Shown: positions 1 through 30,131 of the stretch, piece after piece
Layout of the letters: every line of letters starts with the position of its first letter
Numbering within the stretch: position 1 is the stretch's first letter
Assembly: GCA_900234795.1 (NCBI GenBank)
Contig: LT962688.1
Span: forward strand, 3,750,001-3,782,000
Direction of reading: 5' to 3'
Origin: Methylorubrum extorquens
GTDB lineage: Bacteria > Pseudomonadota > Alphaproteobacteria > Rhizobiales > Beijerinckiaceae
Length of the DNA: 32,000 bases
The notes under the pieces: model-generated
What the model saw: the letters and a program-made list of their open reading frames with translations, nothing else
Databases searched by the model: none
What the model was told of the DNA's origin: nothing
Translations under genes and position numbers: made by a program

Positions 1-435
1 GCGGCCGGCCCGCCAACCCGAGTACAAGGACGAGCCTCCTGCATACCAGCCAAGGCCGCGTCCCCGGCCGCAAGTCCCGTCGGTTCATCGCGCGGAGCCA
101 GCACCAGCACCGTCACCGCGTCCGAGGCAAGCCGCACCCGTCCGTGAAACTCCGCCCAAGGCGGTGCAAAGGCAGGAGCGCCCGAAGCCCGTCGCGACAC
201 CGGTCGCCAAGCCGCAGCCGCCGAGGCCGTCTCTCGCCAAGGCACCGCCCCGCCGCGTCGTCAGGCTCCCGCTCCCACGCCTGTCCCTGCCGCAAGCCAA
301 CCGGGCCCCGCGGACCCTGGCGAGGTACCCGGCGAGGTCCTCTTCGTCCTGAAGGCCGACGCGCCCACCGGGAGCCTGCCCGAGATCCTGCGCCGCGAGC
401 GCCTGGCACTGGTCTCCACGGACACCTTCACGCTG

Positions 436-1491
436 GTGCCGGTCACGCTGCACCGGGCCCGCTTCCGTGACCGACGGTCGGTTGCGGAGGTAATCGCCGC
501 CCTGACGCGCGACCCTCGCGTCGCCTCGGCGCAGGCGAACCATGTCTACGCGCTCGTCGGAGAGGCCGTGCCGGTCCTCGCCGGCGCACAGTACGTCGTG
601 AGCAAGCTACGCCTGAAGGAGGCGCACGCCTCGGTTACGGGCAAGGGCGTGACCGTCGCCGTGATCGATTCCGGTGTCGATCTGGGGCATCCCTCGCTAC
701 AGGGTGCCGTGGCGGACCGGCACGACGCGCTGGACGGCGGCAAGCCGGCGGCCGCCCATCCGCACGGGACGGCCATCGCCGCCATCGTCGGCGCGCGCGC
801 CCAACTGGCCAGCGCCGCACCGGAAGCCAGCCTCCTCGCGGTGCGCGCCTTCTCGGGCGAGACCCGGGCCGGCGCCCAGGGCACCACGCTCCACGTTTTG
901 CGCGGTCTCGACTGGGCCGAGCGCAAGGCCGCGCGCGTGGTCAACATGAGCTTTGCCGGTCCCTGGGACGCGGCCCTCTCCGAATTCCTAGCAGCCGGAA
1001 CCGGACGCGGCGTCGTCTACGTGGCCGCGGGTGGCAACGCCGGCCCGGCTTCGCCGCCCCTGTTCCCGGCCGCCGACCCGAACGTCATTGCGGTGACCGC
1101 GACGGACGCCGAGGACAGGCTCTTCCCGGCGGCCAACCGCGGCTCGCACCTTTGCGTCGCCGCACCGGGCGTCGACATCCTCGTCGCCGCGCCGAACAAC
1201 GGATACGGGCTTCTCTCAGGCACTTCGATGGCCGCCGCGCAGGTCAGCGGTGTGGTTGCCCTGATGCTGCAAGCGAGACCTGGCCTCAAGCCCGCCGAGG
1301 TGCGCACCGCCCTGACGCGCAGCGCCCGCGACCTCGGGCCGCCGGGCCCGGACCGTGAGTTCGGCGCCGGCTTCGCCGACGCGGAAGGTGCCGTGCGGTT
1401 CCTGACGACACCCATGGCCGCCAAGGAGCCGGACGGCCCCATGCCGACTGGGGCGAGCGCCACCCCCGTCAGCGCCAGCTCGCAGCCGTGA
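436..1491 (+). CDS. Subtilisin-like serine peptidase (S8 family), 5' end unresolved
   Basis: Catalytic D/H/S motifs occur in order: VAVIDSGVD, HGTAIAAIVGA, GTSMAAAQVSG, plus VNMSFAG. The N-terminal part (RARFRDRRSVAEVIAALTRDPRVASAQANHVY) looks like the end of an I9-type propeptide. The frame stays open back to a TGA at 145-147, with no ATG/GTG/TTG before the GTG at 436. Confidence 0.85.
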   Translation: MPVTLHRARFRDRRSVAEVIAALTRDPRVASAQANHVYALVGEAVPVLAGAQYVVSKLRLKEAHASVTGKGVTVAVIDSGVDLGHPSLQGAVADRHDALDGGKPAAAHPHGTAIAAIVGARAQLASAAPEASLLAVRAFSGETRAGAQGTTLHVLRGLDWAERKAARVVNMSFAGPWDAALSEFLAAGTGRGVVYVAAGGNAGPASPPLFPAADPNVIAVTATDAEDRLFPAANRGSHLCVAAPGVDILVAAPNNGYGLLSGTSMAAAQVSGVVALMLQARPGLKPAEVRTALTRSARDLGPPGPDREFGAGFADAEGAVRFLTTPMAAKEPDGPMPTGASATPVSASSQP

Positions 1492-1546: not shown

Positions 1547-1581
1547 TGAACCGTTCGCCTCGTCCGGGCGACCCATGAAGG
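1547..1581 (+). promoter_or_regulatory. Putative ECF-type promoter (TGAACCG-N15-CGACC) upstream of the ECF sigma gene
   Basis: TGAAC at 1547-1551, 17-nt spacer, CGAC at 1569-1572, then cATGAAGG. The same extended motif recurs on the minus strand at 5302-5268. Confidence 0.45.
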
Positions 1582-1588
1582 GGCGCGG

Positions 1589-2149
1589 ATGAGCACGCCT
1601 TCCGACGAGGACCTGATCTGGCGCATCGCCGGCGGCGACCGCTCGGCGATGCAGGGCCTCTACGCCCGGCACGCGACGGCCGTGTTCCGCTTCCTCGTCC
1701 GCATGGTGCGCGACCCGAGCCGGGCGGAGGACCTGATGAGCGACGTCTTCTTCGATGTCTGGCAGCAGGCCGGCCGCTTCGAGGGTCGGTCCAGCGTCAC
1801 GACCTGGATGCTGACCATCGCCCGCTTCAAGGCGCTCTCGACCCTGCGGCGACGCCCGCACGAGCCGCTGGAGCCGGAGATGGCCGAGGCGGTCGAGGAC
1901 GAGGCCGATACGCCCGAGGTCACGCTGCAGAAGGCGAGCAAGGCGGAGGCCATGCGCCGCTGCCTCGACCTCCTCTCGGTCGAGCACCGCACCGTGATCG
2001 ACCTCGTCTACTACCACGAGCTCGGCGTCGGGGAGGTGGCGCAGGTGCTCGACATCCCGGCGGGCACCGTGAAGACCCGCCTGTTCCACGCCCGAAAGCG
2101 CCTGTCGGACCTGCTCTTGAAGGCCGGCATCGATCGGGGATGGCCGTGA
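1589..2149 (+). CDS. ECF (sigma-70 family, RpoE-like) RNA polymerase sigma factor
   Basis: Region 2-like DLMSDVFFDVWQQAGRFEGRSSVTTWMLTIARFKALSTLRRR. Region 4-like LLSVEHRTVIDLVYYHELGVGEVAQVLDIPAGTVKTRLFHARKRL. ATG start, followed 10 nt later by the partner gene. Confidence 0.9.
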   Translation: MSTPSDEDLIWRIAGGDRSAMQGLYARHATAVFRFLVRMVRDPSRAEDLMSDVFFDVWQQAGRFEGRSSVTTWMLTIARFKALSTLRRRPHEPLEPEMAEAVEDEADTPEVTLQKASKAEAMRRCLDLLSVEHRTVIDLVYYHELGVGEVAQVLDIPAGTVKTRLFHARKRLSDLLLKAGIDRGWP

Positions 2150-2159
2150 GGAGGCTGCG

Positions 2160-2843
2160 ATGACCACAACCGACCCCGGGCGCGACGAGGACGACCTCAT
2201 CCTGCCCTGGCACGCAACCGGCCGCATCGATCCCGCGGCAGGGGCTCGGATCGAGGCAGCGCTTGCCCGCGACCCGGAGCTCGCCCGCCGCCTCGACCTG
2301 GTCCGGGCCGAGCGGGATGGGACAGTCGCCGTCAACGAAGCCCTCGGCGCGCCGTCGATGAAGGTCGGCGACGACCTGTTCGCGCGCATCGACGCGGACC
2401 TCGCGGCGCGGGAGCGCGGACCGCGTGGCTGGCTGCGGCGGATGGGGGAGGCGCTGGCGGGTCTGTCACCGCCGATGCTGGCGGGCTCGGCCCTCGCCGC
2501 CTGCCTCCTACTCCTGCTGCAGGCGGGGCTGCTGACGAGCGCGTGGCTGGGCGGTTCGCCGACGACCTACGAGACCGCTTCCCACGATGCGAGCGGGCCT
2601 TCGGCGAGCGGCACCTTCCTCCTCGTCACCTTCGGGCCGACGGCCACGGCGGCGCAGATCACCGAAGCCCTCGCGGAGACCGGGTTGTCCATCGTGGATG
2701 GGCCTCGTGCCGGTGGCATCTATCGCCTGCGCCTCTCGGACGGGACCGAAGGTCGAGGTTCGCCGAGCGCCGTCGTCGACCGGCTGCGCACGAAGCCCGG
2801 CCTGGTCGTGCTCGCGGTACCTGAGCCGGTGCCGGCTCGCTGA
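2160..2843 (+). CDS. Putative membrane-spanning anti-sigma factor
   Basis: Sits immediately downstream of the ECF sigma gene, with SD GAGGAGG 6 nt before the ATG. Has the N-terminal LILPWHATGRIDP motif typical of alphaproteobacterial anti-sigma N-domains, a single central TM segment (LAGSALAACLLLLLQAGLLTSAWL) and a C-terminal periplasmic domain. Confidence 0.6.
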   Translation: MTTTDPGRDEDDLILPWHATGRIDPAAGARIEAALARDPELARRLDLVRAERDGTVAVNEALGAPSMKVGDDLFARIDADLAARERGPRGWLRRMGEALAGLSPPMLAGSALAACLLLLLQAGLLTSAWLGGSPTTYETASHDASGPSASGTFLLVTFGPTATAAQITEALAETGLSIVDGPRAGGIYRLRLSDGTEGRGSPSAVVDRLRTKPGLVVLAVPEPVPAR

Positions 2844-2858
2844 CGGACGGGGGTTTGG

Positions 2859-3221
2859 ATGCGCGGTGTCCTGATGCTCGCCCTTCTGGCGCTTGCCGGC
2901 TCGGCCCTGGCGCAGCCCATGCGCAGCGTGCCCCTTGCGGACGACGGCTGGTGGGTAGTGCTCGGCTCCTTCGACAACAACGGCGGGTCGGGCAGCCGTG
3001 CCGCCGATGTGGCCGTTGCGAGCATGCGACGGCAGGCGCAGTCCTGCGGTGAGAGACCCTTCAACGACGTCTCGGAAAAGTTCATGGGGTTTGCGCCGGG
3101 CTTCGACATCTCGGTGCTCGGCGCATATCCGACGCGGGCACGTGCCGAGGCGGCCCGGTCCAGAATAGGGGCCTGCGTGCCGGGCGCCTATATTCGACGC
3201 GCGCGATGCGCCGGCGAGTGA
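2859..3221 (+). CDS. Small secreted hypothetical protein (possibly SPOR-like fold)
   Basis: Signal peptide MRGVLMLALLALAGSALA|QP. The mature part (WWVVLGSF...YPTRARAEAARSRI) is weakly reminiscent of SPOR repeats. Coding-like G/C third positions. Confidence 0.45.
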   Translation: MRGVLMLALLALAGSALAQPMRSVPLADDGWWVVLGSFDNNGGSGSRAADVAVASMRRQAQSCGERPFNDVSEKFMGFAPGFDISVLGAYPTRARAEAARSRIGACVPGAYIRRARCAGE

Positions 3222-3252: not shown

Positions 3253-4290
3253 ATGCGTCGCTTTCCGCCGGAACGGATCGTCTGCCTGACGGAGGAGACG
3301 GTCGAGACCCTCTACCTGCTGGGCGAGCAGGACCGCATCGTCGGCGTTTCGGGCTACGCCGTCTGGCCGGCCCAGGTCCGGCGCGAGAAGCCGCGGGTCT
3401 CGGCCTTCACCAGCGCGGACATCCCGAAGATCCTCGCGCTCGCCCCCGACCTGGTGCTGACCTTCTCGGACCTGCAGGCCGGCATCGTCGCCGATCTCAT
3501 CCGGGCGGGTGTCGCCGTGCACGCGTTCAACCACCGTGACGTGGCCGGCGTCCTCGCCATGATCCGGACGGTGGGCGCGCTGGTCGATGCCCGAGACAAG
3601 GCCGAGACGCTCGCGCTCGGGTACGAGGACCGGCTCGCGCAAATGGCGGCGGAGGCGCGGGGACGCCCGCGGCCACGGGTGTACTTCGAGGAGTGGGACG
3701 AGCCCCTGATTTCCGGCATTGGCTGGGTCTCGGAGCTCGTGCGCGTCGCCGGGGGTGAGGACGTATTCCCGGAGCTCGCAGCCCAGGCCGCCGCGAAGGA
3801 CCGCATTGTCGCGCCCGAAGCGGTGGTCGCCGCGGCACCCGACGTGATCCTCGCCTCGTGGTGTGGGAAGAAGGTGGTGCCGGCTCGCATCGCGGCGCGG
3901 CCGGGTTGGGACGCCATCCCGGCGGTGCGGGAGAACCGCATCGTCGAGATCAAGTCGCCGCTGATCCTTCAGCCGGGTCCCGCCGCCCTGAGCGACGGTC
4001 TCGACGCGATCCGGCAGGCGCTGGCACCGTTGACGAATGCCTTGGATGCTGCCCCGCCGCGGCCGCCCTGGCCCCTCTCCGGGAGGCACCGGGCCGTCCT
4101 TCTGAAGGTTCCGGACGAGGGTTGGATCGAGGGTTCGCGTATCGACGGACGCTGCCTTGACGTCCTCCTGCGCCGCGGCTGGATCAGGAGGGTGCACGTC
4201 GACGGTCGCCGGCAGTCCCGGCGTGACGGCTATCAGAGGACTCCCGCGGCACGGGCGGCCCTCTTCCCGGGTGTGCAGCCGACCACCTGA
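3253..4290 (+). CDS. BtuF/TroA-like (Peripla_BP_2-type, 'cobalamin-binding protein'-like) protein without signal peptide, with extra C-terminal ~85 aa
   Basis: SD AGGAG before the ATG. N-terminus RIVCLTEETVETLYLLGEQDRIVGVSGY, then PDLVLTFSDLQ, VYFEEWDEPLISGIGWVSELV and DVILASWCGKK are typical of class III substrate-binding folds. There is no N-terminal hydrophobic segment. Confidence 0.7.
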   Translation: MRRFPPERIVCLTEETVETLYLLGEQDRIVGVSGYAVWPAQVRREKPRVSAFTSADIPKILALAPDLVLTFSDLQAGIVADLIRAGVAVHAFNHRDVAGVLAMIRTVGALVDARDKAETLALGYEDRLAQMAAEARGRPRPRVYFEEWDEPLISGIGWVSELVRVAGGEDVFPELAAQAAAKDRIVAPEAVVAAAPDVILASWCGKKVVPARIAARPGWDAIPAVRENRIVEIKSPLILQPGPAALSDGLDAIRQALAPLTNALDAAPPRPPWPLSGRHRAVLLKVPDEGWIEGSRIDGRCLDVLLRRGWIRRVHVDGRRQSRRDGYQRTPAARAALFPGVQPTT

Positions 4291-4372: not shown

Positions 4373-4609
4373 ATGAAGACACGTCTTGCAGCCCTGATCA
4401 CAGCCGCGGTCATCCTCGTCCCGGCGTCCGCGTCTGCCCAATACTACGAGTACGGCCCGCGTCGGCATCACCATCACCACCAGCATGTCGATGTGTACCG
4501 GCACGGGGACCACGACCACGTGGTCACGCGGCGACACCATGGCGACCACGACGACGTCAGCGACCACGTTGTCGAGCGCCGCCATCACCATCATCCCTAC
4601 GGCTACTAA
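4373..4609 (+). CDS. Small exported His-rich protein (78 aa)
   Basis: SD AAGAGG. Signal peptide MKTRLAALITAAVILVPASASA|Q. Mature part RRHHHHHQHVDVYRHGDHDHVVTRRHHGDHDDVSDHVVERRHHHHPYGY. Followed by a strong hairpin. Confidence 0.75.
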   Translation: MKTRLAALITAAVILVPASASAQYYEYGPRRHHHHHQHVDVYRHGDHDHVVTRRHHGDHDDVSDHVVERRHHHHPYGY

Positions 4610-4961: not shown

Positions 4962-5228
4962 TCAGAAGCAGACCCTGCGCACGACAAGGTCCCCGAACTC
5001 GGTGAAGCCGCGCCGGACGTGGCAATGACCCCAGTGCCCGTGACCAACGTGGCCGTGCCAGTGGCCATGGCCATGCCCGAAATGGCCGTGCCCGTGACCG
5101 TGCCCGTGACCAAAGTGGCCGTGCCCGTGACCGAAGTGGCCGTGGCCATGGGCGGACGCCGCTGTCGCACCGAAGACACCGAGGCTGGCCAGGAGAACGA
5201 GCGGGAAGAGCTTGCGAGTACCGAACAT
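4962..5228 (-). CDS. Small exported HG-repeat protein (88 aa)
   Basis: SD AGGAGG 4 nt before the ATG. Signal peptide MFGTRKLFPLVLLASLGVFGATAASA|H. Mature part HGHGHFGHGHGHFGHGHGHGHGHFGHGHGHWHGHVGHGHWGHCH plus a short tail ending in F. Confidence 0.75.
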   Translation of the reverse strand: MFGTRKLFPLVLLASLGVFGATAASAHGHGHFGHGHGHFGHGHGHGHGHFGHGHGHWHGHVGHGHWGHCHVRRGFTEFGDLVVRRVCF

Positions 5229-5267: not shown

Positions 5268-5302
5268 CCTTCATTGGTCGTGGGAGGAGTCGAGTCGGTT
5301 CA
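5268..5302 (-). promoter_or_regulatory. Putative ECF-type promoter for the HG-repeat ORF
   Basis: Minus strand reads TGAACCG-N15-CGACCaATGAAGG (TGAAC 5302-5298, CGAC 5280-5277). All conserved positions and the spacing match the motif at 1547-1581. Confidence 0.5.
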
Positions 5303-5491
5303 TCGACGGCTTGAAAAAAGTTCTGCGTCGGCGTCGGCAACGGACTGCCGTTGGTGGGAGGCCGAGAAGAGCGGTTCGCGCTGCAGGTGTATGGGTGGCG
5401 GGGCGGGCGAGAGGCGCAAAAAAGGGCCGCCTTGTCTCACCTTATGGAAACTCACCAAGCATCCGCGGCGCGCTCTATTCCAAAAAACATT

Positions 5492-5553: not shown

Positions 5554-5796
5554 ATGAAGATTACCCTGCCGGTCCTAGTTGCCGCTGCGTCGCTGGTCCT
5601 TGCACCCGGCTACGCCCTGGCGCAGCACATCGACGTCGGCCCGGGCGGCGTCTCCGTCCATGGGCACAGTCATGGGCACGTCGAGCGGCACGAGCACGTC
5701 GAGCGCCACCATCATCACGGCGACCGCCACGTCGACCACCATGACGACCATCACGGAAGTCGCGAGCGGGTAACTGTAGAAAAGCACCGGCACTGA
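5554..5796 (+). CDS. Small exported His-rich protein (80 aa), paralogue of 12958..13200
   Basis: Internal ATG of ORF 5254..5796 chosen because it starts a signal peptide, MKITLPVLVAAASLVLAPGYALA|Q. Mature part HIDVGPGGVSVHGHSHGHVERHEHVERHHHHGDRHVDHHDDHHGSRERVTVEKHRH. Confidence 0.8.
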   Translation: MKITLPVLVAAASLVLAPGYALAQHIDVGPGGVSVHGHSHGHVERHEHVERHHHHGDRHVDHHDDHHGSRERVTVEKHRH

Positions 5797-5863: not shown

Positions 5864-6187
5864 TCAGAAGTGATGGTGATGACGGCGGTGATGGTGGTGG
5901 TGGCCCCAGCCGTGATGATGGTGGCCCCAGCCATGGTGATGATGGCGACGATAGTGGTGGTGGTGCCCCCATCCGTGATGGCGGTGGCCCCAGCCGTGAT
6001 GGTGATGATGACGACGGTGGTTATGATGATGGAACTGCACCTGCCGGAGCGCGTCCGCATCGCCGGCAAGGGTCGAGGCCGGCACGGCGCCGAGCGGAGC
6101 CGCGTTCGCCGGGACCGTCATCGGGCCGAACTGCAGGAACCCGGCAAGCGTCAGGGCGAGCATCGCGGCGAAAAATCGTTTCGACAT
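5864..6187 (-). CDS. Small exported GWGHHHH-repeat protein (107 aa)
   Basis: Internal ATG at 6187 has SD AGGAGG 5 nt upstream. Signal peptide MSKRFFAAMLALTLAGFLQFGPMTVPANA|A. C-terminal half HHHNHRRHHHHHGWGHRHHGWGHHHHYRRHHHHGWGHHHHGWGHHHHHRRHHHHF. Confidence 0.8.
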   Translation of the reverse strand: MSKRFFAAMLALTLAGFLQFGPMTVPANAAPLGAVPASTLAGDADALRQVQFHHHNHRRHHHHHGWGHRHHGWGHHHHYRRHHHHGWGHHHHGWGHHHHHRRHHHHF

Positions 6188-6522: not shown

Positions 6523-6759
6523 ATGAGGAAATCCCTGCTCGCCCTGGCCGTGCTGGCCTCGTTCGGCGTCGCCGGCGCCGCATCCGCCGCCCCAGTCCTC
6601 CCGGGCGCCGTGTCGGCTCCCTCAGAGGTCATCGACGTGCGTATGGAGCGCCATCACCACCACATGCGCGGCCACCGTCGCGGGCACCATCACATGCGCC
6701 ACCACCACCACCGCGGCCACATGATGCGCCACGGCCGCCGTCACCATCACCACATGTGA
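6523..6759 (+). CDS. Small exported His/Arg/Met-rich protein (78 aa)
   Basis: ATG at 6523 preceded by GAGGAA. Signal peptide MRKSLLALAVLASFGVAGAASA|A. Mature C-half ERHHHHMRGHRRGHHHMRHHHHRGHMMRHGRRHHHHM. Confidence 0.75.
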   Translation: MRKSLLALAVLASFGVAGAASAAPVLPGAVSAPSEVIDVRMERHHHHMRGHRRGHHHMRHHHHRGHMMRHGRRHHHHM

Positions 6760-7061: not shown

Positions 7062-10000
7062 TCACTCCGCCGCTCGCGGGAGGGGCGGTGGGTGGGCGCC
7101 GGCCGAAGCATCCTCGGGCTTGCGCGCGGGGCTCGCGACCGCCTGCCTACCGAAGCGCGCGTAGAGGGCCGGCAACACGATGAGCGTGAGCAGCGTCGCG
7201 CTAATCAGGCCGCCGATAACCACCGTGGCGAGCGGCCTCTGGACCTCCGCGCCCGTGCCGGTCGCGAGCGCCATCGGGACGAACCCGAGCGACGCGACGA
7301 GGGCAGTCATCACCACCGGACGCAGACGGGTGCTCGCGCCCTCCAGCACCGCCTCGCGCAGCGGTCGGCCCTCCTGCATCAACTGCTTGACGTAGCTCAG
7401 CATCACCAGCCCGTTCAGGACTGCCACCCCCGACAGAGCGATGAAGCCCACGGCCGCGGTGACCGAGAACGGCATGCCGCGCAGCCACAGGGCCGCGATG
7501 CCGCCCGTGAGCGCGAGCGGCACGGCGCTGAACACCAGGAGCGCCTCGCGGGGCGAGCCGAGCGCCGAGTAGAGCAGCAGGAAGATCAGGAAGAAGCAGC
7601 CCGGCACCACCACCATCAGGCGTTGGCGCGCCGCGGCCAGGTTCTCGAACGCGCCGCCCCAGGTCACCCAGGAGCCGGCCGGCAGCTTGACTTCCGTCTC
7701 GACCTTGAGCTGGGCCTCCGCCACCACGGAGGCGATGTCGCGTCCTCGGACGTTGGCGGTGACGACAACCCGACGCTTGCCGTTCTCACGGCTGATCTGG
7801 TTCGGTCCCTCCGCGAACACGAAGGACGCGACCTGCTTCAGGGGCACCGAGGCGAAGCGCCCGTTTGCCGTCGGGGGCAGTGAGACCGGTAGGTTCTTCA
7901 GCGCCTCGATGTCGTCTCGCACGGTCTCGGGCAGGCGGACCACGATGTGGAAGCGCCGGTCACCCTCGAACACGACCCCGGCCTCGCGACCGCCGATGGC
8001 AGCCCCGATGACGTCCTGAACCGCGAAGTGGCTCAGCCCCAACCGGGCGATCTCGCCCTTGTCGACCTTGATCTCCAGGGATGGCAGGCCGGTGACCTGC
8101 TCGACCTTGACGTCCTGAGCTCCCTCGACGCTGCGCAGGATGCCGGCGATCCGGTTCGCGGCCGGCAGCATCGCCTCGAAGCTCTCGCCGAACACCTTGA
8201 CGGCAAGGTCGCCGCGGGTGCCGGCCAGGAGCTCGTTGAAGCGCATTTGGATGGGCTGGGTGAACTCGTAGTTGTTGCCCGGAACCTTGTTCACTGCGGC
8301 CTGAATCTGTTCGATGAGCTCATCTTTCGACAGGTGCGGGTCGGGCCACTCGGCCTGTGGCTTGAGCATGATGAAGGTGTCGGAGACGTTCACCGGCATC
8401 GGGTCGGAGGCGATCTCCGCGGTGCCGGTCTTGGCGAACACAAAGGCCACCTGCGGGAAGGCGGAGACCGCCTTCTCGACGGCGAGCTGCATGTCCTGCG
8501 ACTGGGTCAGCGAGGTCGAGGGGATGCGCATCGCGTGCATGGCGATGTTCTTCTCGTCGAGCTGAGGCATGAACTCCTGCCCCAGCCGCCCGAACAGGAT
8601 GCCACTCGCCAGGAACAGCAGGACTGCCGCGCCGATGACCGGTCCCGGCCGGCGCACCGCGCCGGCCAGCAGCGGGCGGTAGGCCCGCTTGAGGCCGCGG
8701 ATCAGGACGTTCTCCTTCTCCTGCACCTTGCCGGTGATGACTATGGCGATGAGAGCAGGCACGAAGGTGAGGGATAAGACGAAGGCGCAGGCCAGCGCGA
8801 TGATCACGGTCAGCGCCATCGGCTCGAACATCTTGCCCTCGACGCCCGTGAAGGTGAGGAGCGGCACGTAGACGAGGATGATGATGGCTTGCCCGTAGAC
8901 GGAGGGCTTGATCATCTCCTCGGCCGAGGCCTGAACGGTGGCGAGGCGCTCCTCCAGGGTTAGGGGACGCCCCGCCTCCGTCTGCCGCTCGGCCAGGTGG
9001 CGCAGCGCGTTCTCGGTGATGATGACCGCCCCATCGACGATGAGGCCGAAGTCCAGCGCCCCGAGGCTCATCAGGTTGGCCGAGATCTTCCCCTGGACCA
9101 TGCCGGTCATGGTCATCAGCATCGCCACCGGGATCACCAGGGCCGTGATGATGGCGGCCCGGATGTTGCCGAGCAGTAGGAAGAGCACGGCTATGACCAG
9201 CAGGGCGCCCTCGGCGAGGTTCTTGGAGACCGTCTTCACGGTAGCGTCGACCAGCGCAGTCCGGTTGAGGACCGTCCGCACCTCGACGTTCGGCGGCAGC
9301 GACTTGGACACCTCCTTCAGGCGCGCGTCGACCGCCGCGGACACGGTGCGGCTGTTTCCGCCAATGAGCATCAGGGCAGTGCCGACGACGGCTTCCTCGC
9401 CGTCCTCGCTCGCCGAGCCCGTGCGCAGCTCGCGCCCGATCCGGACCTCGGCCACGTCGGAGATCCGCACCGGCACGCCGCCGCGAGTGGCGACGACGAT
9501 GCGTCCGATCTCGTCCATTCCCTCGATCCGGCCGGCCGAGCGCACGACGACGCCCTCGCCGCTGCGCTCGAGGTAGCCGGCGCCCCGGTTCTGGTTGTTC
9601 TGCTCGACGGCCTCGGCGACGTCCTTGAATGAGAGCCCGAGGGCGATGAGCTTCGCCGGATCAGGCTGCACGTGGTACTGCTTCTCGTAGCCGCCGATGA
9701 CGTCGACACCGGCCACGCCCGGCACCGTCTTGAGTTGCGGACCGACGATCCAGTCTTGCACGGTCCGCAGGTAGGCCGCCTGCTCGAACCCGGGCCTCAG
9801 CCGCTGGCCTTCCGGCGTCAGGTAGGTGCCGTCGGACTGGAAGCCGGGCTGGCCGTCGCGCACGGTACCGGGCGCCGGCTTCGTGAAGTGGACGGTCCAC
9901 ATGTAGATCTCGCCAAGGCCCGTCGAGATCGGGCCCATCCGGACCTCGGCGCCCGGGGGCAGGTCGTCCTTCACTTGGCTTAGGCGCTCGCTCACCTGCT

Positions 10001-10322
10001 GGCGGGCGAAGTAGACGTTCGTCGCCTCGCTGAAGACGGCGGTGACCTGGGAGAAGCCGTTGCGCGAGAGGGAGCGGGTGTATTCCAGGCCCGGGATGCC
10101 GGCCAGCGCCGTCTCCATCGGGTAGGTGACCTGCTTCTCGACATCGAAGGGCGAGAGCTGCGGCACCACCGCGTTCACCTGGACCTGGTTGTTGGTGATG
10201 TCCGGGACCGCGTCGATGGGCAGCTTGGTCAGCGAGAAGACGCCCAACGCCGCCGCGAGCAGCGACAGCAGCAGCACCAGCCAACGCTGCCGGACAGAGA
10301 AGGCGAGGATTGCGTGGATCAT
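7062..10322 (-). CDS. czcA: Heavy-metal efflux RND permease, CzcA type (divalent cation class)
   Basis: 1086 aa. The N-terminus LPIDAVPDITNNQVQVN, ISTGLGEIYMW, the TM4 signature LDFGLIVDGAVIITEN and C-terminal GTGAEVQRPLATVVIGGL all follow the C. metallidurans CzcA sequence as I recall it. Confidence 0.95.
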   Translation of the reverse strand: MIHAILAFSVRQRWLVLLLSLLAAALGVFSLTKLPIDAVPDITNNQVQVNAVVPQLSPFDVEKQVTYPMETALAGIPGLEYTRSLSRNGFSQVTAVFSEATNVYFARQQVSERLSQVKDDLPPGAEVRMGPISTGLGEIYMWTVHFTKPAPGTVRDGQPGFQSDGTYLTPEGQRLRPGFEQAAYLRTVQDWIVGPQLKTVPGVAGVDVIGGYEKQYHVQPDPAKLIALGLSFKDVAEAVEQNNQNRGAGYLERSGEGVVVRSAGRIEGMDEIGRIVVATRGGVPVRISDVAEVRIGRELRTGSASEDGEEAVVGTALMLIGGNSRTVSAAVDARLKEVSKSLPPNVEVRTVLNRTALVDATVKTVSKNLAEGALLVIAVLFLLLGNIRAAIITALVIPVAMLMTMTGMVQGKISANLMSLGALDFGLIVDGAVIITENALRHLAERQTEAGRPLTLEERLATVQASAEEMIKPSVYGQAIIILVYVPLLTFTGVEGKMFEPMALTVIIALACAFVLSLTFVPALIAIVITGKVQEKENVLIRGLKRAYRPLLAGAVRRPGPVIGAAVLLFLASGILFGRLGQEFMPQLDEKNIAMHAMRIPSTSLTQSQDMQLAVEKAVSAFPQVAFVFAKTGTAEIASDPMPVNVSDTFIMLKPQAEWPDPHLSKDELIEQIQAAVNKVPGNNYEFTQPIQMRFNELLAGTRGDLAVKVFGESFEAMLPAANRIAGILRSVEGAQDVKVEQVTGLPSLEIKVDKGEIARLGLSHFAVQDVIGAAIGGREAGVVFEGDRRFHIVVRLPETVRDDIEALKNLPVSLPPTANGRFASVPLKQVASFVFAEGPNQISRENGKRRVVVTANVRGRDIASVVAEAQLKVETEVKLPAGSWVTWGGAFENLAAARQRLMVVVPGCFFLIFLLLYSALGSPREALLVFSAVPLALTGGIAALWLRGMPFSVTAAVGFIALSGVAVLNGLVMLSYVKQLMQEGRPLREAVLEGASTRLRPVVMTALVASLGFVPMALATGTGAEVQRPLATVVIGGLISATLLTLIVLPALYARFGRQAVASPARKPEDASAGAHPPPLPRAAE

Positions 10323-10333
10323 GGCGGCGCTCC

Positions 10334-11677
10334 TCAGTGCTCGTGCTCTGCTTCGGCCTTGCCGAGCTCGGCCTTGAGGACAAACGCGTTCGTGACAGCG
10401 ACCTCTTCCCCTGCGTCCAGCCCGAAGACGACCTCGACGGCCTCGGCGTCACCCTTGCCGGTCACCACCTCGCGCTTCTCGAAGCCGTCCTTGGTGCGCA
10501 CGAAGACGACCTGCTCGCCCTCGACGTTTTGCAGGGCGGAGCGGGGCAGGCGCAGGGACACCGATTCCTGCTCGACCGCGACCTGCACGGTGGCGTAGGA
10601 GCCTGGCCGCCAGGCCATGCTCTCGTTCTTCACGGACGCGATGACCTTGGCGGAGCGCGTCTGGGCGTCCAGCATCGGGCTGACGAAGACGATCTTGCCC
10701 GTCGTCGTGGCCTTGTCGTCGCCCGTGCCGAGCGTGACCGCCTGGCCCTCCTTGATCGCGCTGAGATCGCCGGTCGGGACCGCGAGCTCGACCCAGACCC
10801 AGGACAGGTCCGCGATGGTGTAGATCTCCTTCTCCTGGCCCTCGTCGTTGACGGGCGCGCCGACATCGACGCGCCGCTCGATGACCCGGCCGGAGATGGG
10901 TGCGCGGAGCTCATAGCGCTGGAGCCCGAGCATCGGCGCCCGGTCGAGCCCCGCCATGTGCTCGTCCTCGACCGAGACGAACTTCTTCGTTGGGTTCGGG
11001 GCCTCGGCGAGCTTGGCGACCTCCGCGTCAGGCACGCCCAGCGCCGAGAGCTTCTGGCGCGCGAGGTCGACCTTCAGGCGCGCCTCGATCAGAGCGGTAC
11101 GGGCCTTGAGGAAGACCTGCTCGGCCGAGATGCCCTTGTCCCGGAGCGTATGGTCGCGCTCGAACAGGGTCTCCTGCAACTCGCGTCCGACATGGGCCGC
11201 GATGTAATCGTTCTTGGCGTCGGCCACCTCGCGGCTGTCGAGCACGGCCACGACCTCACCCTTCTCGACGGTGTCGCCCAGGCGCTTTCTCAGTTCGGCG
11301 ACGGTACCAATGACCTTGGCGGCGACCCGAGCCACCCGCTCGGCGTCCGGCGCAACCGTGCCGGGCACGGTGAGCTTGCGGGAGAGAATACCCTTGTCGA
11401 CCGGCGCGACCGTTATCTTGGCGGCGGTGATCTGCTCGGGCGTAAGCGTGACGACGCCCTCGGGCCCCTCCTTCTCCCCTTCGCCGTGGGCGTGCCCTCC
11501 GTGGGAGTGGCCGCCGTGCGAGTGGCCGGCATGGCCGCCTTCGGTCCTGGGCTTGGCGGGAGCGTCGAGGCCGGTCGCGGCCCAGAGCGCCTTGGTGCCG
11601 TCGGACACCTCCGGAACGAGGGCGCCCACGGCGACCCCGGCAGCGAGCACGGCCGGAAGGGCAAGGAAACGGAACAT
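10334..11677 (-). CDS. czcB: RND periplasmic adaptor (membrane fusion protein), CzcB-like, with His-rich N-terminal stretch
   Basis: Start taken at ATG 11677 (SD GGAGGA, signal/anchor MFRFLALPAVLAAGVAVGAL). Contains GGHAGHSHGGHSHGGHAHGEGE, then coiled-coil and beta-barrel adaptor-like sequence. Stop is 11 nt before czcA. Confidence 0.9.
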   Translation of the reverse strand: MFRFLALPAVLAAGVAVGALVPEVSDGTKALWAATGLDAPAKPRTEGGHAGHSHGGHSHGGHAHGEGEKEGPEGVVTLTPEQITAAKITVAPVDKGILSRKLTVPGTVAPDAERVARVAAKVIGTVAELRKRLGDTVEKGEVVAVLDSREVADAKNDYIAAHVGRELQETLFERDHTLRDKGISAEQVFLKARTALIEARLKVDLARQKLSALGVPDAEVAKLAEAPNPTKKFVSVEDEHMAGLDRAPMLGLQRYELRAPISGRVIERRVDVGAPVNDEGQEKEIYTIADLSWVWVELAVPTGDLSAIKEGQAVTLGTGDDKATTTGKIVFVSPMLDAQTRSAKVIASVKNESMAWRPGSYATVQVAVEQESVSLRLPRSALQNVEGEQVVFVRTKDGFEKREVVTGKGDAEAVEVVFGLDAGEEVAVTNAFVLKAELGKAEAEHEH

Positions 11678-11797
11678 GGAAAAATCCTCCGGACCGCATC
11701 TGGGCGGCCGCGGGTCACGTCGGATCTCGATTAGGACGTGACCGCGCATGCAAACGGGGGCAGGCGACCGCCTCGGTGGCGGACGTGCGGGGACCGT

Positions 11798-18469: not shown

Positions 18470-19989
18470 CCCGCCCGGCATGGCTCGCCGGGCCCCTCGC
18501 CGCGCTCGCGGCGGGGGGGCTCGGCTATTGGGCGGGGCACGGGGGCATTCCCGTGCCGGCACTCGTCAAACGGGCCGGGTCCGAGCTCGTGCCCGCGCTT
18601 GTCGAGCGGGCGCGGGCCGGCTTCGCGCACTGGATGCCGGACGCCCGTCCGGCCCGGCAGGGGCCGGCACCCCAGGTTCCGGCCCCTGCCGGGCCGGTGG
18701 TCTACTACCGAGATCCGGACGGGAAGCCGGTCTACTCGGCCTCGCCGATGCTAACCGGGGACGGGCGCGAGTTCCGGGCAGTCCACGCGAGCGAGGACGT
18801 TCGCATCGACGCCGACGACCCCGGCGCCATGTCCGCTGACATGGCCGAGCACGGCACGGCGCACGACAAAGCGGCCGGCGGCGCCCGGCGGGTCCTCTAC
18901 TACCGCAACCCGATGGGGCTGCCGGACACCTCGCCGGTGCCGAAGAAGGACTCGATGGGGATGGACTACGTCCCCGTTTACGCAGGTGAGGACGAGGGCG
19001 GCGTCGTGACGGTCTCGCCCGCCAAGGTCCAGCGCACCGGCGTGCGCACCGCGGCGGTTGAGCGGCGGATCGTCTCCCAGCCGGTGCGCGTGCCCGGCAC
19101 GGTTGCGCTCGACGAGCGCCGCGTCACCGTCGTGGCGACGCGCTCGGACGCCTACGTCGACTACGTCGAAAGCGTCACCACCGGCGACCGCGTCCGCAAG
19201 GGCCAGCCCCTGGTCCACGTCTACTCGCCCGAGATCAACGCGGCCGCCGCCCAGCTCATCGCCAACCCCGGCTTCGACGGGGCCCGGCGGCGTCTGCAGA
19301 ACCTCAACGTCTCGGAACCCGTCATCGACGAGATGGAGCGCACCCGGAAAGTGCCGATGGCCATCACGTGGTCCTCGCCCCGAGACGGCCTCGTCCTGCA
19401 GCGGACCGCCGTCGAGGGCATGAAGGCCGCGGCCGGCGACACTCTGTTCCGGATCGGCGACATCTCCCTGATGTGGGTGCTGGCCGACGTGCCCGAGCGC
19501 GACCTTGCGGGGGTCCGCGTGGGCCAGCCCGTCAGCGTGCGGCTACGCTCTGCGCCAGGGCGGACCTTCTCCGGCAAGGTGGCAATCGTCTACCCACAGG
19601 TGAACCCGGAGACCCGGGCCACCCGGGTACGCATCGAGCTCGCGAACCCGGACGGCACGCTGCTCCCTGACATGTACGCCGATGTCGAGATCGCGACCGG
19701 GGCGCCGAGCCCGGTGGTGGCGGTCCCGGATGACGCCGTCATCGACACGGGCGAGCGCCAGGTGGTCCTGCTCGACCGTGGCGAGGGCCGCTTCGAGCCG
19801 AAGGAGGTCAAGGTCGGCGTGCGCGGCGGCGGCTACGTCGAGGTGCGCGAGGGCGTCACGGCCGGCGACCGGGTGGTCACGGCGGCGAACTTCCTGATCG
19901 ACGCCGAGAGCAACTTGAAGGCGGCGCTCCAGTCCATGACCGTCCCGAAAGACGACCGGCAGGCTTCGAGCTCGGGAGGCACGCCGTGA
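18466..19989 (+). CDS. cusB: Cu(I)/Ag(I) RND periplasmic adaptor, CusB-like
   Basis: Start at ATG 18466 overlaps the upstream stop. TM anchor, then YYRDPDGKPVYS and LYYRNPMGLPDTSPVPKKDSMGMDYVPVY (CusB-like N-terminal metal-site region), then adaptor barrel/lipoyl-like sequence. The stop overlaps the cusA GTG (GTGA). Confidence 0.9.
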   Translation: MTRPAWLAGPLAALAAGGLGYWAGHGGIPVPALVKRAGSELVPALVERARAGFAHWMPDARPARQGPAPQVPAPAGPVVYYRDPDGKPVYSASPMLTGDGREFRAVHASEDVRIDADDPGAMSADMAEHGTAHDKAAGGARRVLYYRNPMGLPDTSPVPKKDSMGMDYVPVYAGEDEGGVVTVSPAKVQRTGVRTAAVERRIVSQPVRVPGTVALDERRVTVVATRSDAYVDYVESVTTGDRVRKGQPLVHVYSPEINAAAAQLIANPGFDGARRRLQNLNVSEPVIDEMERTRKVPMAITWSSPRDGLVLQRTAVEGMKAAAGDTLFRIGDISLMWVLADVPERDLAGVRVGQPVSVRLRSAPGRTFSGKVAIVYPQVNPETRATRVRIELANPDGTLLPDMYADVEIATGAPSPVVAVPDDAVIDTGERQVVLLDRGEGRFEPKEVKVGVRGGGYVEVREGVTAGDRVVTAANFLIDAESNLKAALQSMTVPKDDRQASSSGGTP

Positions 19990-22900
19990 TCGCGCGCCTC
20001 ATCGGCTGGTCGGCCCGCAACCTCGTCCTGGTGCTCGTCGGGACCGTGTTCGCGGTCGGGGCAGGCGTCCTGGCGCTCAGGACCCTGCCGCTCGACGCCA
20101 TCCCCGACCTCTCGGACGTGCAGGCCATCGTCTACACCGAGTACCCGGGCCAAGCGCCCCAGGTCGTGGAGGATCAAGTCACCTACCCCTTGAGCACCGC
20201 CATGTTGACGGTGCCGAAGGCGAAGGTCGTGCGCGGCTTCTCGTTCTTCGGCGTGTCCTTCGTCTACGTGATCTTCGAGGACGGCACCGACCCGTACTGG
20301 GGCCGCTCGCGCGTGCTCGAATACCTTAACGCCGCGGCGAGCCGCCTGCCGGCCGGCGCCACGCCGACCCTAGGGCCCGACGCGACTGGGGTGGGCTGGG
20401 TCTACCAGTACGTCGTGGTCGCCAAGGAGCGCACGCTCGCCGAGCTTCGCTCGCTGCAGGACTGGGTCATCCGCTTCGGGGCCTCGCGCGCCGAGGGCGT
20501 GGCAGAGGTCGCCGGCGTCGGCGGCTTCGTGAAGCAGTACAACGTCGTCGTCGACCCGAACCGCCTGCGTGCCCAGGGCATCTCGCTCAACAAGCTCCGG
20601 GACGCCATCCGGGCGAGCAACGCCGACGTCGGCGGCCGGACGGTCGAGCTCTCCGAGTTCGAGTTTATGGTGCGCGGGCGCGGCTATCTGCGGAACGTCG
20701 CCGACATCGAAAACATCGTGCTGAAGACCTCGGCCGGCACGCCACTCCGGATCCGGGACGTCGCCCGGGTCGAGCTCGGGCCGGACGAGCGGCGCGGCAT
20801 CACCGAGATGAACGGCGAGGGCGAGGTCGCCGGCGGCATCGTCCTTCAGCGGTTCGGGGCGAACGCCCTCAACGTGATCGAAGGGGTGAAGGCGAAGCTC
20901 GCGGAGGTCGCCAAGAGCCTGCCGGCGGGCACAGAGATCCTGCCGGTCTACGACCGCTCGCAGCTCATCGACGCGGCTATCGAGACGCTCAAGGGCACGC
21001 TCGTCGAGGAGAGCATCGTCGTCTCGCTCGTCTGCGTCGTCTTCCTGCTCCACGTGCGGAGCGCCCTGGTGGCCATCCTGATGCTGCCGGTCGGCATCCT
21101 GATGGCCTTGGCGAGCATGAAGGCGCTCGGAATCGGCGCCAACATCATGTCTCTCGGCGGCATCGCCATCGCGGTCGGCGCCATGGTCGACGCCGCCATC
21201 GTGATGATCGAGAACGCCCACAAGCACCTGGAGCGGGCGCCGCCGGGCAAGCCGCGGGTCGAGATCCTGGTCGAGGCGGCGTCCGAGGTCGGCCCCTCCC
21301 TGTTCTTCTCGCTCCTCGTCATCACGGTCTCGTTCCTGCCGATCTTCACCCTAGAGAGCCAGGAGGGGCGGCTGTTCGGGCCGCTCGCCTACACCAAGAC
21401 CTTCGCCATGGCGGCCGCCGCCCTCCTGTCGGTCACCCTGGTGCCGGCGCTCATGGTGCTGTTCGTGCGCGGGCGCATCTTCCCCGAGCACCGCAACCCG
21501 CTGAACCGTCTCCTCATCTGGCTCTATCGGCCGCTCATCGCCGGGGTGCTGCGGGCCCGGGTCCTGACCATCCTGCTGGCGGTCGGCGTGCTGGCGGCGA
21601 CCGCTTGGCCGGCCCGGCAGCTCGGCTCCGAGTTCATGCCGGAGCTGAACGAGGGGACGCTGCTCTACATGCCGACGACCCTGCCCGGTATCTCGGTGAC
21701 GAAGGCCGGCGAGCTGCTCGCCACGCAGGACCGCATCATCAAGTCCTTCCCTGAGGTCGCCTCGGTCTACGGCAAGGCGGGACGCGCCAACACCGCGACC
21801 GACCCGGCGCCGATGGAGATGTTCGAGACGGTGATCACGCTGAAGCCGAGGGCCGAGTGGCGCCCGGGCGTGACGCTGGCGAGCCTCAAGGCCGAGATGG
21901 ACGCGGCCCTGCAGTTCCCGGGCGTGTCGAATGCCTGGACCCAGCCGATCCGCGCCCGCATCGACATGCTTTCCACCGGCATCCGCACGCCCGTGGGCGT
22001 GAAGGTGCTGGGCACCGACCTGAAGGAGATGGAAGGCGTCGCCCGCCAGGTCGAGGCGGTGCTCCGGGCCGTGCCCGGCACGTCTAGCGCCTACGCCGAG
22101 CGGGTCATCGGCGGCTACTTCCTCGACATCGCGCCGGACCGCGAGGCGCTCGGGCGCTACGGCCTGACGGTCGGGGACGTGCAGGACGTCGTCGCGACTG
22201 CGCTCGGCGGGCAGGCGGTGACGAACACCGTCGAAGGCCGGGAGCGCTACACCGTCAACGTGCGCTACCCGCGCGCCTACCGGTCGGACCCGCAAGCCAT
22301 CGCCGACGAGGTGCAGGTGCTGATGCCGGCGGGCGGCACGGTGCCGCTCCGCGAGGTGGCCAAGGTCGAGCTCACCCGCGGCCCGACCTCGATCCGGACC
22401 GAGAACGGGCAGCTCGCGGTCTACGTCTTCGTCGACATCTCGGGGCGCGACCTCGGCGGTTACGTGGCCGAGGCCCGCAAGGTCGTCACCGACGAAATCA
22501 AGCTGCCCCAGGGCACCACGCTGCAATGGAGCGGGCAGTACGAGTACCTGGAGCGGGCGGAGGCGCGGCTGAGGGTCGTGGTGCCGTTGACGCTGCTGGT
22601 CGTGTTCCTGCTGCTCTACCTCAACTTCCGGCGGCTCACCGAGACGCTCATCGTCATGCTGTCGCTGCCCTTCGCGCTCGTCGGCGGGGTCTGGATGCTC
22701 TGGTGGCTTGGGTTCAACCTATCAGTCGCGGTGGCGGTCGGCTTCATCGCGCTCGCCGGCGTCGCCGCGGAGACCGGCGTGATCATGCTGGTTTACCTCG
22801 ACCATGCCCTCCACGAGGTCCAGGCCGGGTGCGCCCGTGCAGGCCGGCCGCTCACCCGCGCGGACTTGCGGCAGGCCATCATGGTCGGCGCGGTCGAGCG

Positions 22901-23147
22901 CGTCCGCCCGAAGATGATGACCGTGACGGCCATCATGGCCGGGCTCGTCCCGATCCTCTGGAGCACGGGTGCCGGGTCCGAGGTCATGCAGCGGATCGCG
23001 GTTCCCATGATCGGCGGCATGGTCTCCTCGACGGTGTTGACGCTGATCGTGATCCCGGCGGTCTACGCCCTGGTGAAGGGCCGCGGGCTGCCGCCCACGA
23101 CGGCGGTGGCGGAGAGGGGCACGCAGACGCCGATGGCTGCGGCATGA
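19986..23147 (+). CDS. cusA: Cu(I)/Ag(I) efflux RND permease, CusA type
   Basis: [36 protein letters not shown] and [19 protein letters not shown] follow E. coli CusA as I recall it. TM4 is [21 protein letters not shown]. The methionine-triad contexts are conserved: [32 protein letters not shown]. Confidence 0.95.
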   Translation: [1053 protein letters not shown]

Positions 23148-29900: not shown

Positions 29901-30131
29901 GTGCCGCTGCTCTACGACGCGGCGAGCCCGGGCAAGGAGATCCTGCACCCCGTCGCGGTGACGATCTTCGGCGGGCTCGTCAGCGCGACGCTGCTCGACA
30001 CCTTCCTGACCCCCGTCCTGTTCCTGCGCTTCGGTCGCAAGCCGCTTGAGCGGCTGCGCGCCCTCCACGCCGAGGCGCCGGCCCATCCATCCCCGGACGG
30101 CGCCCGCGCTCGCCCGGCCGAGGCCTACTGA
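26982..30131 (+). CDS. Heavy-metal efflux RND permease, CusA/CzcA superfamily, divergent third class
   Basis: 1049 aa. [39 protein letters not shown]4 is [21 protein letters not shown] (AIG..DDA, unlike DFG..DGA or AVG..DAA). C-terminal [26 protein letters not shown]. Confidence 0.93.

Follow-up and report, generated by a model that had tools for sequence, protein, structure and literature searches.

A candidate ECF sigma factor promoter shared by a sigma/anti-sigma operon and a His-rich mini-protein gene, with indications of a wider regulon in the Hyphomicrobiales

Genes and features of the locus

Two matching promoter-like sites were studied in a 32-kb stretch of DNA (the window). One lies upstream of a gene for an extracytoplasmic function (ECF) sigma factor; the second precedes a gene for a small secreted protein with His-Gly (HG) repeats. 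An initial annotation, made from the window sequence, had described the two sites as -35 and -10 elements of one promoter type and had proposed from them an autoregulated sigma gene, sigma control of a His-rich exported peptide, and possibly a periplasmic metal-stress regulon. Comparison with orthologous loci makes it very probable that both sites are promoters read by RNA polymerase with the ECF sigma factor from 1589-2149, which would thus control its own gene and that of the His-rich mini-protein. The features on which this reading is built are as follows.

1..1491, cut by the left window end (+): S8 (subtilisin-family) protease gene; catalytic-domain open reading frame (ORF) at 436-1491, Pfam Peptidase_S8 3e-48
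1547..1553 (+): -35 element of the sigma promoter, TGAACCG; core GAACC at 1548-1552, the same in all 76 orthologous sites
1569..1575 (+): -10 element of the sigma promoter, CGACCCA; consensus (C)GAC(C/T)(A/C)A, hardly varying at G, A, C, and the last A
1576..1581 (+): TGAAGG, the downstream part of the initially annotated motif, in the discriminator at about -7 to -2; without conservation in orthologs
1583 +/- 2 nt (+): predicted transcription start of the sigma promoter, placed by the geometry of the Rhizobiales-2 RNA loci described below
1589..2149 (+): ECF sigma factor gene, 186 amino acids (aa); Pfam Sigma70_r2 and Sigma70_r4_2; NCBIfam PRK12515, 291 bits (cutoff 236)
2160..2843 (+): single-pass anti-sigma factor gene, 227 aa; helical N-terminal domain, transmembrane (TM) segment at residues 104-131, periplasmic domain at 153-221
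4962..5228 (-): HG-repeat target gene, an 88-aa secreted mini-protein; signal peptide, HG repeats, Cys69-Cys87 beta-hairpin
5266 +/- 2 nt (-): predicted transcription start of the HG-repeat gene, placed by the same geometry; 38-nt 5' untranslated region (5'UTR)
5274..5280 (-): -10 element of the HG-repeat promoter, CGACCAA; its end lies 45 nt before the ATG (44-61 nt in the family)
5296..5302 (-): -35 element of the HG-repeat promoter, TGAACCG

Motif search and comparison of orthologous loci

Both strands of the window were searched for TGAACCG-N15-CGACCNATGAAGG with 3 mismatches allowed, and 100 dinucleotide shuffles served as a control. Exactly two occurrences were found, at 1547-1581 on the plus strand (TGAACCG-TTCGCCTCGTCCGGG-CGACCCATGAAGG) and at 5302-5268 on the minus strand (TGAACCG-ACTCGACTCCTCCCA-CGACCAATGAAGG). 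These agree letter for letter with the strands, coordinates and unrelated spacers of the initial annotation. The chance expectation for a match in the window is 0.01, and none of the 100 shuffles gave two. Since the 15-nt spacers are identical at only 1 of 15 positions, the two sites are not a copied or duplicated segment. At both, an AAC-containing -35 block and a CG-containing -10 block stand about 16-17 nt apart (TGAACC-N16-CGACC), which is the ECF-type architecture that had been assigned to them.

Site 1 (1547-1581) ends 8 nt before the ATG (1589) of the sigma gene. Its upstream footprint was compared in 80 loci with sigma orthologs (59-75% identical), from genomes that include Methylobacterium, Bosea, Bradyrhizobium, Nitrobacter, Tardiphaga, and Flaviflagellibacter as well as metagenome-assembled genomes (MAGs) labeled Pseudolabrys, Xanthobacteraceae, Hansschlegelia, and Microvirga, among others. 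The element (T/C)GAACC-N17-GAC(C/T)NA was found 21-43 nt before the sigma start codon in 78 of these 80 Hyphomicrobiales loci, with unrelated spacers. A count matrix of 76 sites gave the consensus T(T/C)GAACC(T)-N15-(C)GAC(C/T)(A/C)A, in which little or no variation is seen in GAACC, in GAC, or at the final A. Judged by this conservation, site 1 shows the classic phylogenetic footprint of an autoregulated ECF promoter, as had been proposed for the sigma gene.

With a position weight matrix (PWM) built from the orthologous promoters, the site at 1547-1581 scored 23.6 bits and that at 5302-5268 scored 20.6 bits. No third site of 14 bits or more was found in the window, including when the spacer was varied by 2 nt. 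A weak 13.5-bit site at 5379 (-) that came from the variable-spacing scan was rejected.

The second site and the mini-protein family

A PWM trained only on sigma-upstream sites was run over the 80 loci (2.9 Mb, both strands counted). Beyond the training sites, 63 sites scored at least 14 bits and 54 scored at least 17 bits; totals in ten first-order Markov simulations were 3-11 and 0-3, respectively. The additional sites are close to the sigma gene, often divergent at 150-290 nt upstream of it or 2-3.6 kb away, and most precede a Shine-Dalgarno sequence and the ATG of a 75-107-aa protein of common architecture. Their common plan is a signal peptide that ends in (A/T)ASA, then low-complexity sequence with abundant His, Gly, Trp or Tyr, and at the C-terminus a motif of which CYxV(K/R)RxVxTPxGPRxRRVxVC(D/N) is an example. 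The genes behind the sites of 17 bits or more comprise about 30 such Cys-loop mini-proteins, the S8 protease (L004 and L006), and the small RNA (sRNA) Rhizobiales-2 (20 loci), and the excess of 54 sites over the 0-3 expected, placed before these recurring gene types, is what a coherent regulon should give.

The HG-repeat ORF of the window, whose C-terminus reads HWGHCHVRRGFTEFGDLVVRRVCF, shares the architecture of the mini-proteins of the other loci. Its Sec signal peptide ends in AxA, low-complexity sequence of His, Gly, and aromatic residues comes next, and the C-terminal C-x(15-20)-C hairpin includes basic residues and the invariant Gly. It aligns with 25 locus-derived members and 47 of the database matches, in which C69, G79, and C87 are invariant or nearly so. 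The 88-aa precursor contains 20 His. In an AlphaFold2 (AF2) model, residues 23-66 are disordered, and a hairpin of residues 69-75 and 81-87, with a predicted local distance difference test score (pLDDT) of about 80, is closed by Cys69 and Cys87. A profile search for the family returned at least 218 clusters, labeled hypothetical or, wrongly, "sulfur globule protein". Pfam and NCBIfam gave nothing significant for the mini-proteins, and no Pfam domain was found in any of the clusters.

The association of promoter and family was also examined across every small ORF that ends in a Cys-x(14-24)-Cys pattern. The genuine members, about 30, have a site of at least 14 bits whose -10 end lies 44-61 nt before the ATG, and spurious ORFs with the same Cys pattern score below 6 bits. 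This fixed placement before some 30 homologous genes supports the proposal that the sigma factor would control the His-rich exported peptide. In Methylorubrum populi (locus L081), three sites are present: a 90-aa Cys-loop gene with the S8 gene behind it has one, the sigma gene has another, and the third, of 26 bits, stands ahead of the 85-aa ortholog of the HG-repeat gene. An independent group of metagenome loci (L209-L213) has the order sigma, anti-sigma, S8, mini-protein, mini-protein, and each mini-protein gene there stands behind a site of 28.6-28.8 bits.

As a separate observation, strong sites at L030:~9700 (-), L079:~9730 (-), and L171:2863 (+) precede another type of target. These are secreted proteins, rich in His and Gly and 150-220 aa long, that share a conserved PCTCL(T/W)K..(D/E)G.VVF.D.CT motif and are unrelated to the Cys-loop mini-proteins.

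A possible wider regulon

Rhizobiales-2 (Rfam RF01723) occupies the slot after the S8 gene in 20 Bradyrhizobium-clade loci, with 96 bits in L058 (13239-13340), and in 18 of the 20 its distance downstream of the sigma start is about 3.0-3.2 kb. Before every copy stands TTGAACGT-N15-CGAC(T/C)NAT, which ends 7-8 nt before the RNA 5' end. This arrangement suggests that Rhizobiales-2 is a sigma-dependent sRNA of the sigma/anti-sigma/S8 module. It is absent from the window, in which no Rfam match was obtained anywhere and no match by nhmmer. The RNA was listed without a function in the paper that discovered it (Weinberg et al. 2010, PMC2864571), and literature mentions of it were limited to that paper and one survey.

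In an unbiased scan, metagenome contigs gave exact matches to TTGAACC-N16-CGACCNATG at 120 loci. Recurrent behind them are genes for Cys-loop mini-proteins (about 16), YkuD L,D-transpeptidases (10), small membrane proteins, the sigma factor, and the S8 protease, and the spacers differ within each downstream-gene group. For the L,D-transpeptidase genes, which are of three types, the exact match is located 11-116 nt before the start codon (L090, L094, L108, L113, L118, L122, L141, L145, L159, and L176); this hints that the wider regulon concerns peptidoglycan cross-linking. A function in the envelope or peptidoglycan rather than in metal homeostasis is offered as a lead.

Motif core, predicted start sites, and 5' stem-loop

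The initially annotated motif comprised 19 identical positions, of which a smaller part is conserved. Across these alignments the functional core appears to be TGAACC-N16-CGACCnA. In the 54 target sites the invariant A is followed by T (70%) and then G (54%), the only positions enriched there, so that CGACCnATG is a mild extension of target promoters. The sigma-upstream sites in other loci diverge straight after the A of the -10 element, and in the nearest relative (M. populi, sigma factor 91% identical) the two corresponding sites read CGACCCATGCAGG and CGACCAACGAAGG. AAGG is not conserved, and its identity between the two window sites is best read as chance. The core of the extended motif is thus retained and its AAGG part is dropped, with AT(G) partly conserved in target promoters.

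Counted from the invariant A of the -10 element, the Rhizobiales-2 RNA models start at a distance of 8 nt in 20 loci. If transcription begins likewise in the window, starts would fall near 1583 (+) and 5266 (-), and AAGG would lie in the discriminator.

The predicted 5'UTR of the HG-repeat gene opens with a stem-loop, AGGGCC-GATCACA-GGCCCT, at 5265-5247 (-), with a minimum free energy of -11.8 kcal/mol (z = -2.1). A stem-loop within 3 nt of the predicted +1 is present in 25 of 28 family 5'UTRs, against 4.5 +/- 2.0 in shuffles; like the Rhizobiales-2 geometry, this placement supports the predicted starts indirectly. The sequence of these stems differs between clades and their pairing is kept, and a reading of the palindrome as a DNA operator was for this reason rejected in favor of an RNA stem, possibly a stabilizing 5'-terminal hairpin.

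The sigma/anti-sigma/S8 module

The sigma protein contains sigma-70 regions 2 and 4 only and, at 186 aa, is within the roughly 170-200 aa expected of an ECF sigma factor. More than 1900 homologs were found, the nearest (91-93% identical) in a Methylobacteriaceae MAG and in M. populi, and at least 593 sigma loci were counted among 185,579 species genomes.

An anti-sigma homolog is directly downstream of the sigma gene in 80/80 loci; the nearest homolog of the window protein is from Methylorubrum extorquens (92% identical). The AF2 model (pLDDT 79.6) has helices at residues 6-100, a TM helix at 104-131, and a beta-alpha-beta-beta-alpha-beta domain at 153-221 (window 2616-2822). With its helical N-terminal domain, its single TM helix, and a gene co-oriented with that of the sigma factor, the protein has the features of a Class I anti-sigma factor. 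Among 45 homologs, Pfam matches were to zf-HC2 (22/45, the window protein not among them), Fervidolysin_NPro-like (4/45), and SPOR (2/45). The HxxxCxxC motif of zinc-binding anti-sigma (ZAS) domains is absent from the window protein, which reads LPWHATGRIDPAAGARIEAAL, and the alignment contains no invariant or near-invariant Cys column.

A sequence search of the PDB with the anti-sigma factor returned only noise. When the periplasmic domain was compared with the PDB by Foldseek, the top matches were the prosegments of subtilisin E/BPN', furin/PC1-3, and EpiP and the Tk-subtilisin propeptide, with TM-scores of 0.64-0.72 relative to the target and probabilities of 0.95-1.0, but with weak E-values (>=9e-3). 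An hhalign comparison of the domain with the alignment of the cognate S8 proteases gave a single match, to the prodomain of S8 itself, which is weak (E 0.0047, probability 7.5%). The modeled fold is suggestive, though not proof, of a prodomain-like sensor domain that would interact with S8; alternatively, it may be a SPOR-like domain that binds peptidoglycan.

The S8 gene adjoins the sigma gene region in 69/80 loci. It is upstream in Methylobacteriaceae-type loci, including the window, and in other loci its place is downstream of the anti-sigma gene. A motif site precedes the S8 gene itself in L004 and L006. Eight aligned orthologs are 504-630 aa long, and most combine a signal peptide and a Gly-rich segment with a Pro/Arg-rich linker, a prodomain of their own, and an intact Asp/His/Ser triad. 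An action of the protease on the anti-sigma factor had been raised as pure speculation in the initial annotation; it gains some support from this adjacency and from the prodomain-like periplasmic fold, within the weak statistics given above.

The S8 ortholog of M. populi has 584 aa; frame 2 of the window matches its residues 90-182, and frame 1 matches residues 154-584. When the DNA of the two is aligned, the window has an apparent 1-nt deletion near 249-250 (GCACCGCC-CCGCCG vs GCACCGCCTCCGCCG), and the frameshift falls between the Pro-rich linker and the prodomain. Either this gene is a pseudogene or the sequence is in error here. Going by L081, the DNA immediately left of the window probably contains a third promoter site and one more Cys-loop gene.

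One further gene is probably part of the same operon as the sigma and anti-sigma genes.

2859..3221 (+): gene for a secreted protein of 120 aa; the N-terminus of the ORF resembles a signal peptide

It is found at the same position in the M. populi loci L081 and L082, and tblastn gave no match to the protein in the 80 more distant loci.

Window neighborhood and the metal-stress proposal

The HG-repeat gene is one of five genes for small secreted His-rich proteins, which adjoin genes of a resistance-nodulation-division (RND) efflux system.

4373-4609 (+), 4962-5228 (-), 5554-5796 (+), 5864-6187 (-), 6523-6759 (+): small secreted His-rich genes
7062-10322 (-): CzcA-type gene of an RND metal-efflux operon, beside the His-rich cluster
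10334-11749 (-): CzcB-type gene of an RND metal-efflux operon, beside the His-rich cluster

The four other His-rich genes have no Cys loop and no site of at least 14 bits, variable spacing included, and no such site was found at the CzcCBA-type pump under the same settings. The promoter therefore tracks the Cys-loop family and not histidine content. A CnrX-like sensor gene, as would be present in a CnrYXH-type system, was not found between 1 and 13.4 kb of the window.

Other features of the neighborhood are recorded for completeness. At 3253-4290 (+) a Peripla_BP_2 ORF without an evident signal peptide is joined to a C-terminal segment of about 80 aa, which in M. populi is a separate 82-aa gene (L081:12427-12675); the window arrangement may be a strain-specific fusion or insertion. 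ORFs of more than 1000 aa at 19986-23147 (+) and 26982-30131 (+) have the size of RND transporters, and the region may contain several efflux systems.

Interpretation

Under the proposed mechanism, the single-pass anti-sigma factor would hold the sigma factor at the membrane in the resting state, and an extracytoplasmic cue would free it. Release may proceed through the co-conserved S8 protease, which would cut the prodomain-like periplasmic domain of the anti-sigma factor. Once freed, the sigma factor would act at site 1 in positive autoregulation of the sigma/anti-sigma operon, probably including the 120-aa gene. At site 2 it would give rise to a monocistronic mRNA with a 5'-terminal stem-loop, encoding a secreted His/Gly-rich mini-protein with a disulfide-closed hairpin. 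The same wiring of sigma factor and mini-protein is found again in many related soil bacteria, and the system seems to be linked with the cell envelope and not with metal stress. The motif, its conservation, and its link to these gene families are observations; dependence on the sigma factor, the transcription starts, the signal, and the part played by the protease are inferred.

Several points weigh against this reading of the two sites. Another ECF paralog of the same promoter specificity could read the sites. The predicted leader of the sigma mRNA would be about 6 nt, that is, nearly leaderless, which is unusual though precedented in Methylorubrum, where leaderless mRNAs make up 7% of mRNAs (PMC9320726). 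Finally, one remote member of the mini-protein family in a Bradyrhizobium genome has no site, so that family membership alone does not predict regulation.

An assignment of the sites to another sigma factor, for example an ECF paralog, or to an unrelated regulator as its operator, with the closeness to this sigma gene incidental, draws on the fact that GAAC / CG-type promoters are common to many ECF groups and on a metagenome match (L179, 46% GC) before a distantly related sigma gene. It is nevertheless quite improbable, as the motif stays with this sigma ortholog group across Hyphomicrobiales families (78/80), the second sites lie within a few kb of the sigma gene and are often divergent from it at 150-290 nt, and two blocks around a fixed, unconserved 16-nt spacer are typical of a sigma factor and not of a dimeric repressor. 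That the sites are a chance resemblance or the functionless remnant of a local duplication might be argued from there being just two copies in the window and from the seemingly coincidental AAGG part. An expectation of 0.01 matches, spacers that share 1 position in 15, and the presence of both sites at orthologous positions in other genomes with different spacers make this hardly credible.

The metal-stress regulon of the initial annotation accepts the promoters as real, with Ni, Zn, Co or Cu sensed, a His-rich buffering peptide produced, and the His-rich neighbors and the CzcCBA-type pump induced. The 20 His of the target protein, its place among four other His-rich mini-protein genes and beside a CusA/CzcA-family RND pump, and the 5-16 His of many family members speak for it. 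Neither those neighbors nor the pump, however, has a site that reaches 14 bits, even with variable spacing; the orthologous pair in M. populi adjoins unrelated genes, with no czc cluster; and members with strong sites may contain as few as 0-2 His (L043, L036, L083, L085, and L004). The motif also precedes S8 proteases, L,D-transpeptidases, and an sRNA, and no CnrX-like sensor gene lies between 1 and 13.4 kb. The metal-stress regulon is not supported by these data, and we consider it unlikely.

A more far-reaching possibility, put forward tentatively and with more doubt than confidence, extends the preferred reading of both sites as promoters of the neighboring sigma factor. The sigma/anti-sigma/S8 module would then be an undescribed envelope-signaling pathway of the Hyphomicrobiales, in which the periplasmic domain of the anti-sigma factor mimics a subtilase prodomain, a dedicated S8 protease performs site-1 cleavage of that domain or is inhibited by it, and the regulon consists of disulfide-hairpin mini-proteins, L,D-transpeptidases, and the Rhizobiales-2 sRNA. 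If true, peptidoglycan and envelope remodeling would be coupled to a new proteolytic switch.

The comparison supplies a promoter consensus and a first candidate regulon for a widespread, unstudied ECF sigma group, and it delimits a family of secreted mini-proteins that had no annotation. Rhizobiales-2, an orphan motif of Rfam, gains a candidate transcription factor and a candidate 5' end, and the conserved S8 protease becomes a candidate regulator of the anti-sigma factor. As the closest database matches are in Methylorubrum extorquens, which is genetically tractable, the claims are directly testable there.

Comparison with known systems

The module resembles sigma-E (RpoE)/RseA/DegS-RseP of Escherichia coli in its autoregulated ECF sigma factor, in a gene immediately downstream for a single-pass anti-sigma factor, and in the association of a periplasmic serine protease with the pathway. 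The two regulons are also alike in combining envelope proteins with sRNAs, namely MicA, RybB, and MicL in E. coli and Rhizobiales-2 in the Bradyrhizobium-type loci. The E. coli consensus is GGAACTT-N16-TCAAA, as against TGAACC-N16-CGACCnA here; the protease is the S1 enzyme DegS there and an S8 subtilase here; and the periplasmic domain of the anti-sigma factor is unrelated to RseA. Identity of the window sigma factor to solved RpoE/AlgU structures is low (E 1e-11 to 1e-16).

CnrH/CnrY/CnrX of Cupriavidus metallidurans likewise combines an ECF sigma/anti-sigma pair with a nearby CzcA-type RND pump and His-rich periplasmic proteins, and this analogy is behind the metal-stress idea. The present system differs in having no CnrX-type sensor and in a 227-aa single-pass anti-sigma factor with a periplasmic domain of its own; the pump genes are without the promoter, and the pump neighborhood is not kept in the closest relative. 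Like SigW/RsiW/PrsW of Bacillus subtilis, it has an anti-sigma factor that crosses the membrane once and bears its anti-sigma domain at the N-terminus, and regulated proteolysis is presumed in both. The window protein differs from RsiW in lacking HxxxCxxC and in its extracytoplasmic domain, and the candidate site-1 protease is S8 and not PrsW. The database name "anti-sigma factor RsiW" carried by homologs is annotation transfer, not tested homology. EcfS/EcfF of Bradyrhizobium japonicum was ruled out as this system, since it belongs to ECF16, with six-TM anti-sigma factors.

The predicted beta-alpha-beta-beta-alpha-beta topology of the periplasmic domain is that of subtilase prodomains (inhibitor I9 / Fervidolysin N-pro), although here the domain is fused to an anti-sigma factor and not to a protease, and SPOR, matched by 2/45 homologs, also has a ribonucleoprotein (RNP)-like fold. 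The Rhizobiales-2 loci share the promoter motif with the window, where a protein-coding gene instead of an RNA stands behind it. The promoter motifs tabulated for Sinorhizobium meliloti ECF sigma factors do not include TGAACC-N16-CGAC, and no description of this sigma/anti-sigma/S8/mini-protein module was found in the searchable literature.

A conserved subtilase gene near an ECF sigma gene is also a feature of ECF54-type groups, which have been described without an anti-sigma factor and for which the protease has been proposed to degrade the sigma factor itself (PMC8999054). The loci studied here differ in encoding a canonical membrane anti-sigma factor in 80/80 cases. In kind this is an ordinary autoregulated ECF system, belonging to an uncharacterized and widespread group with a conserved module.

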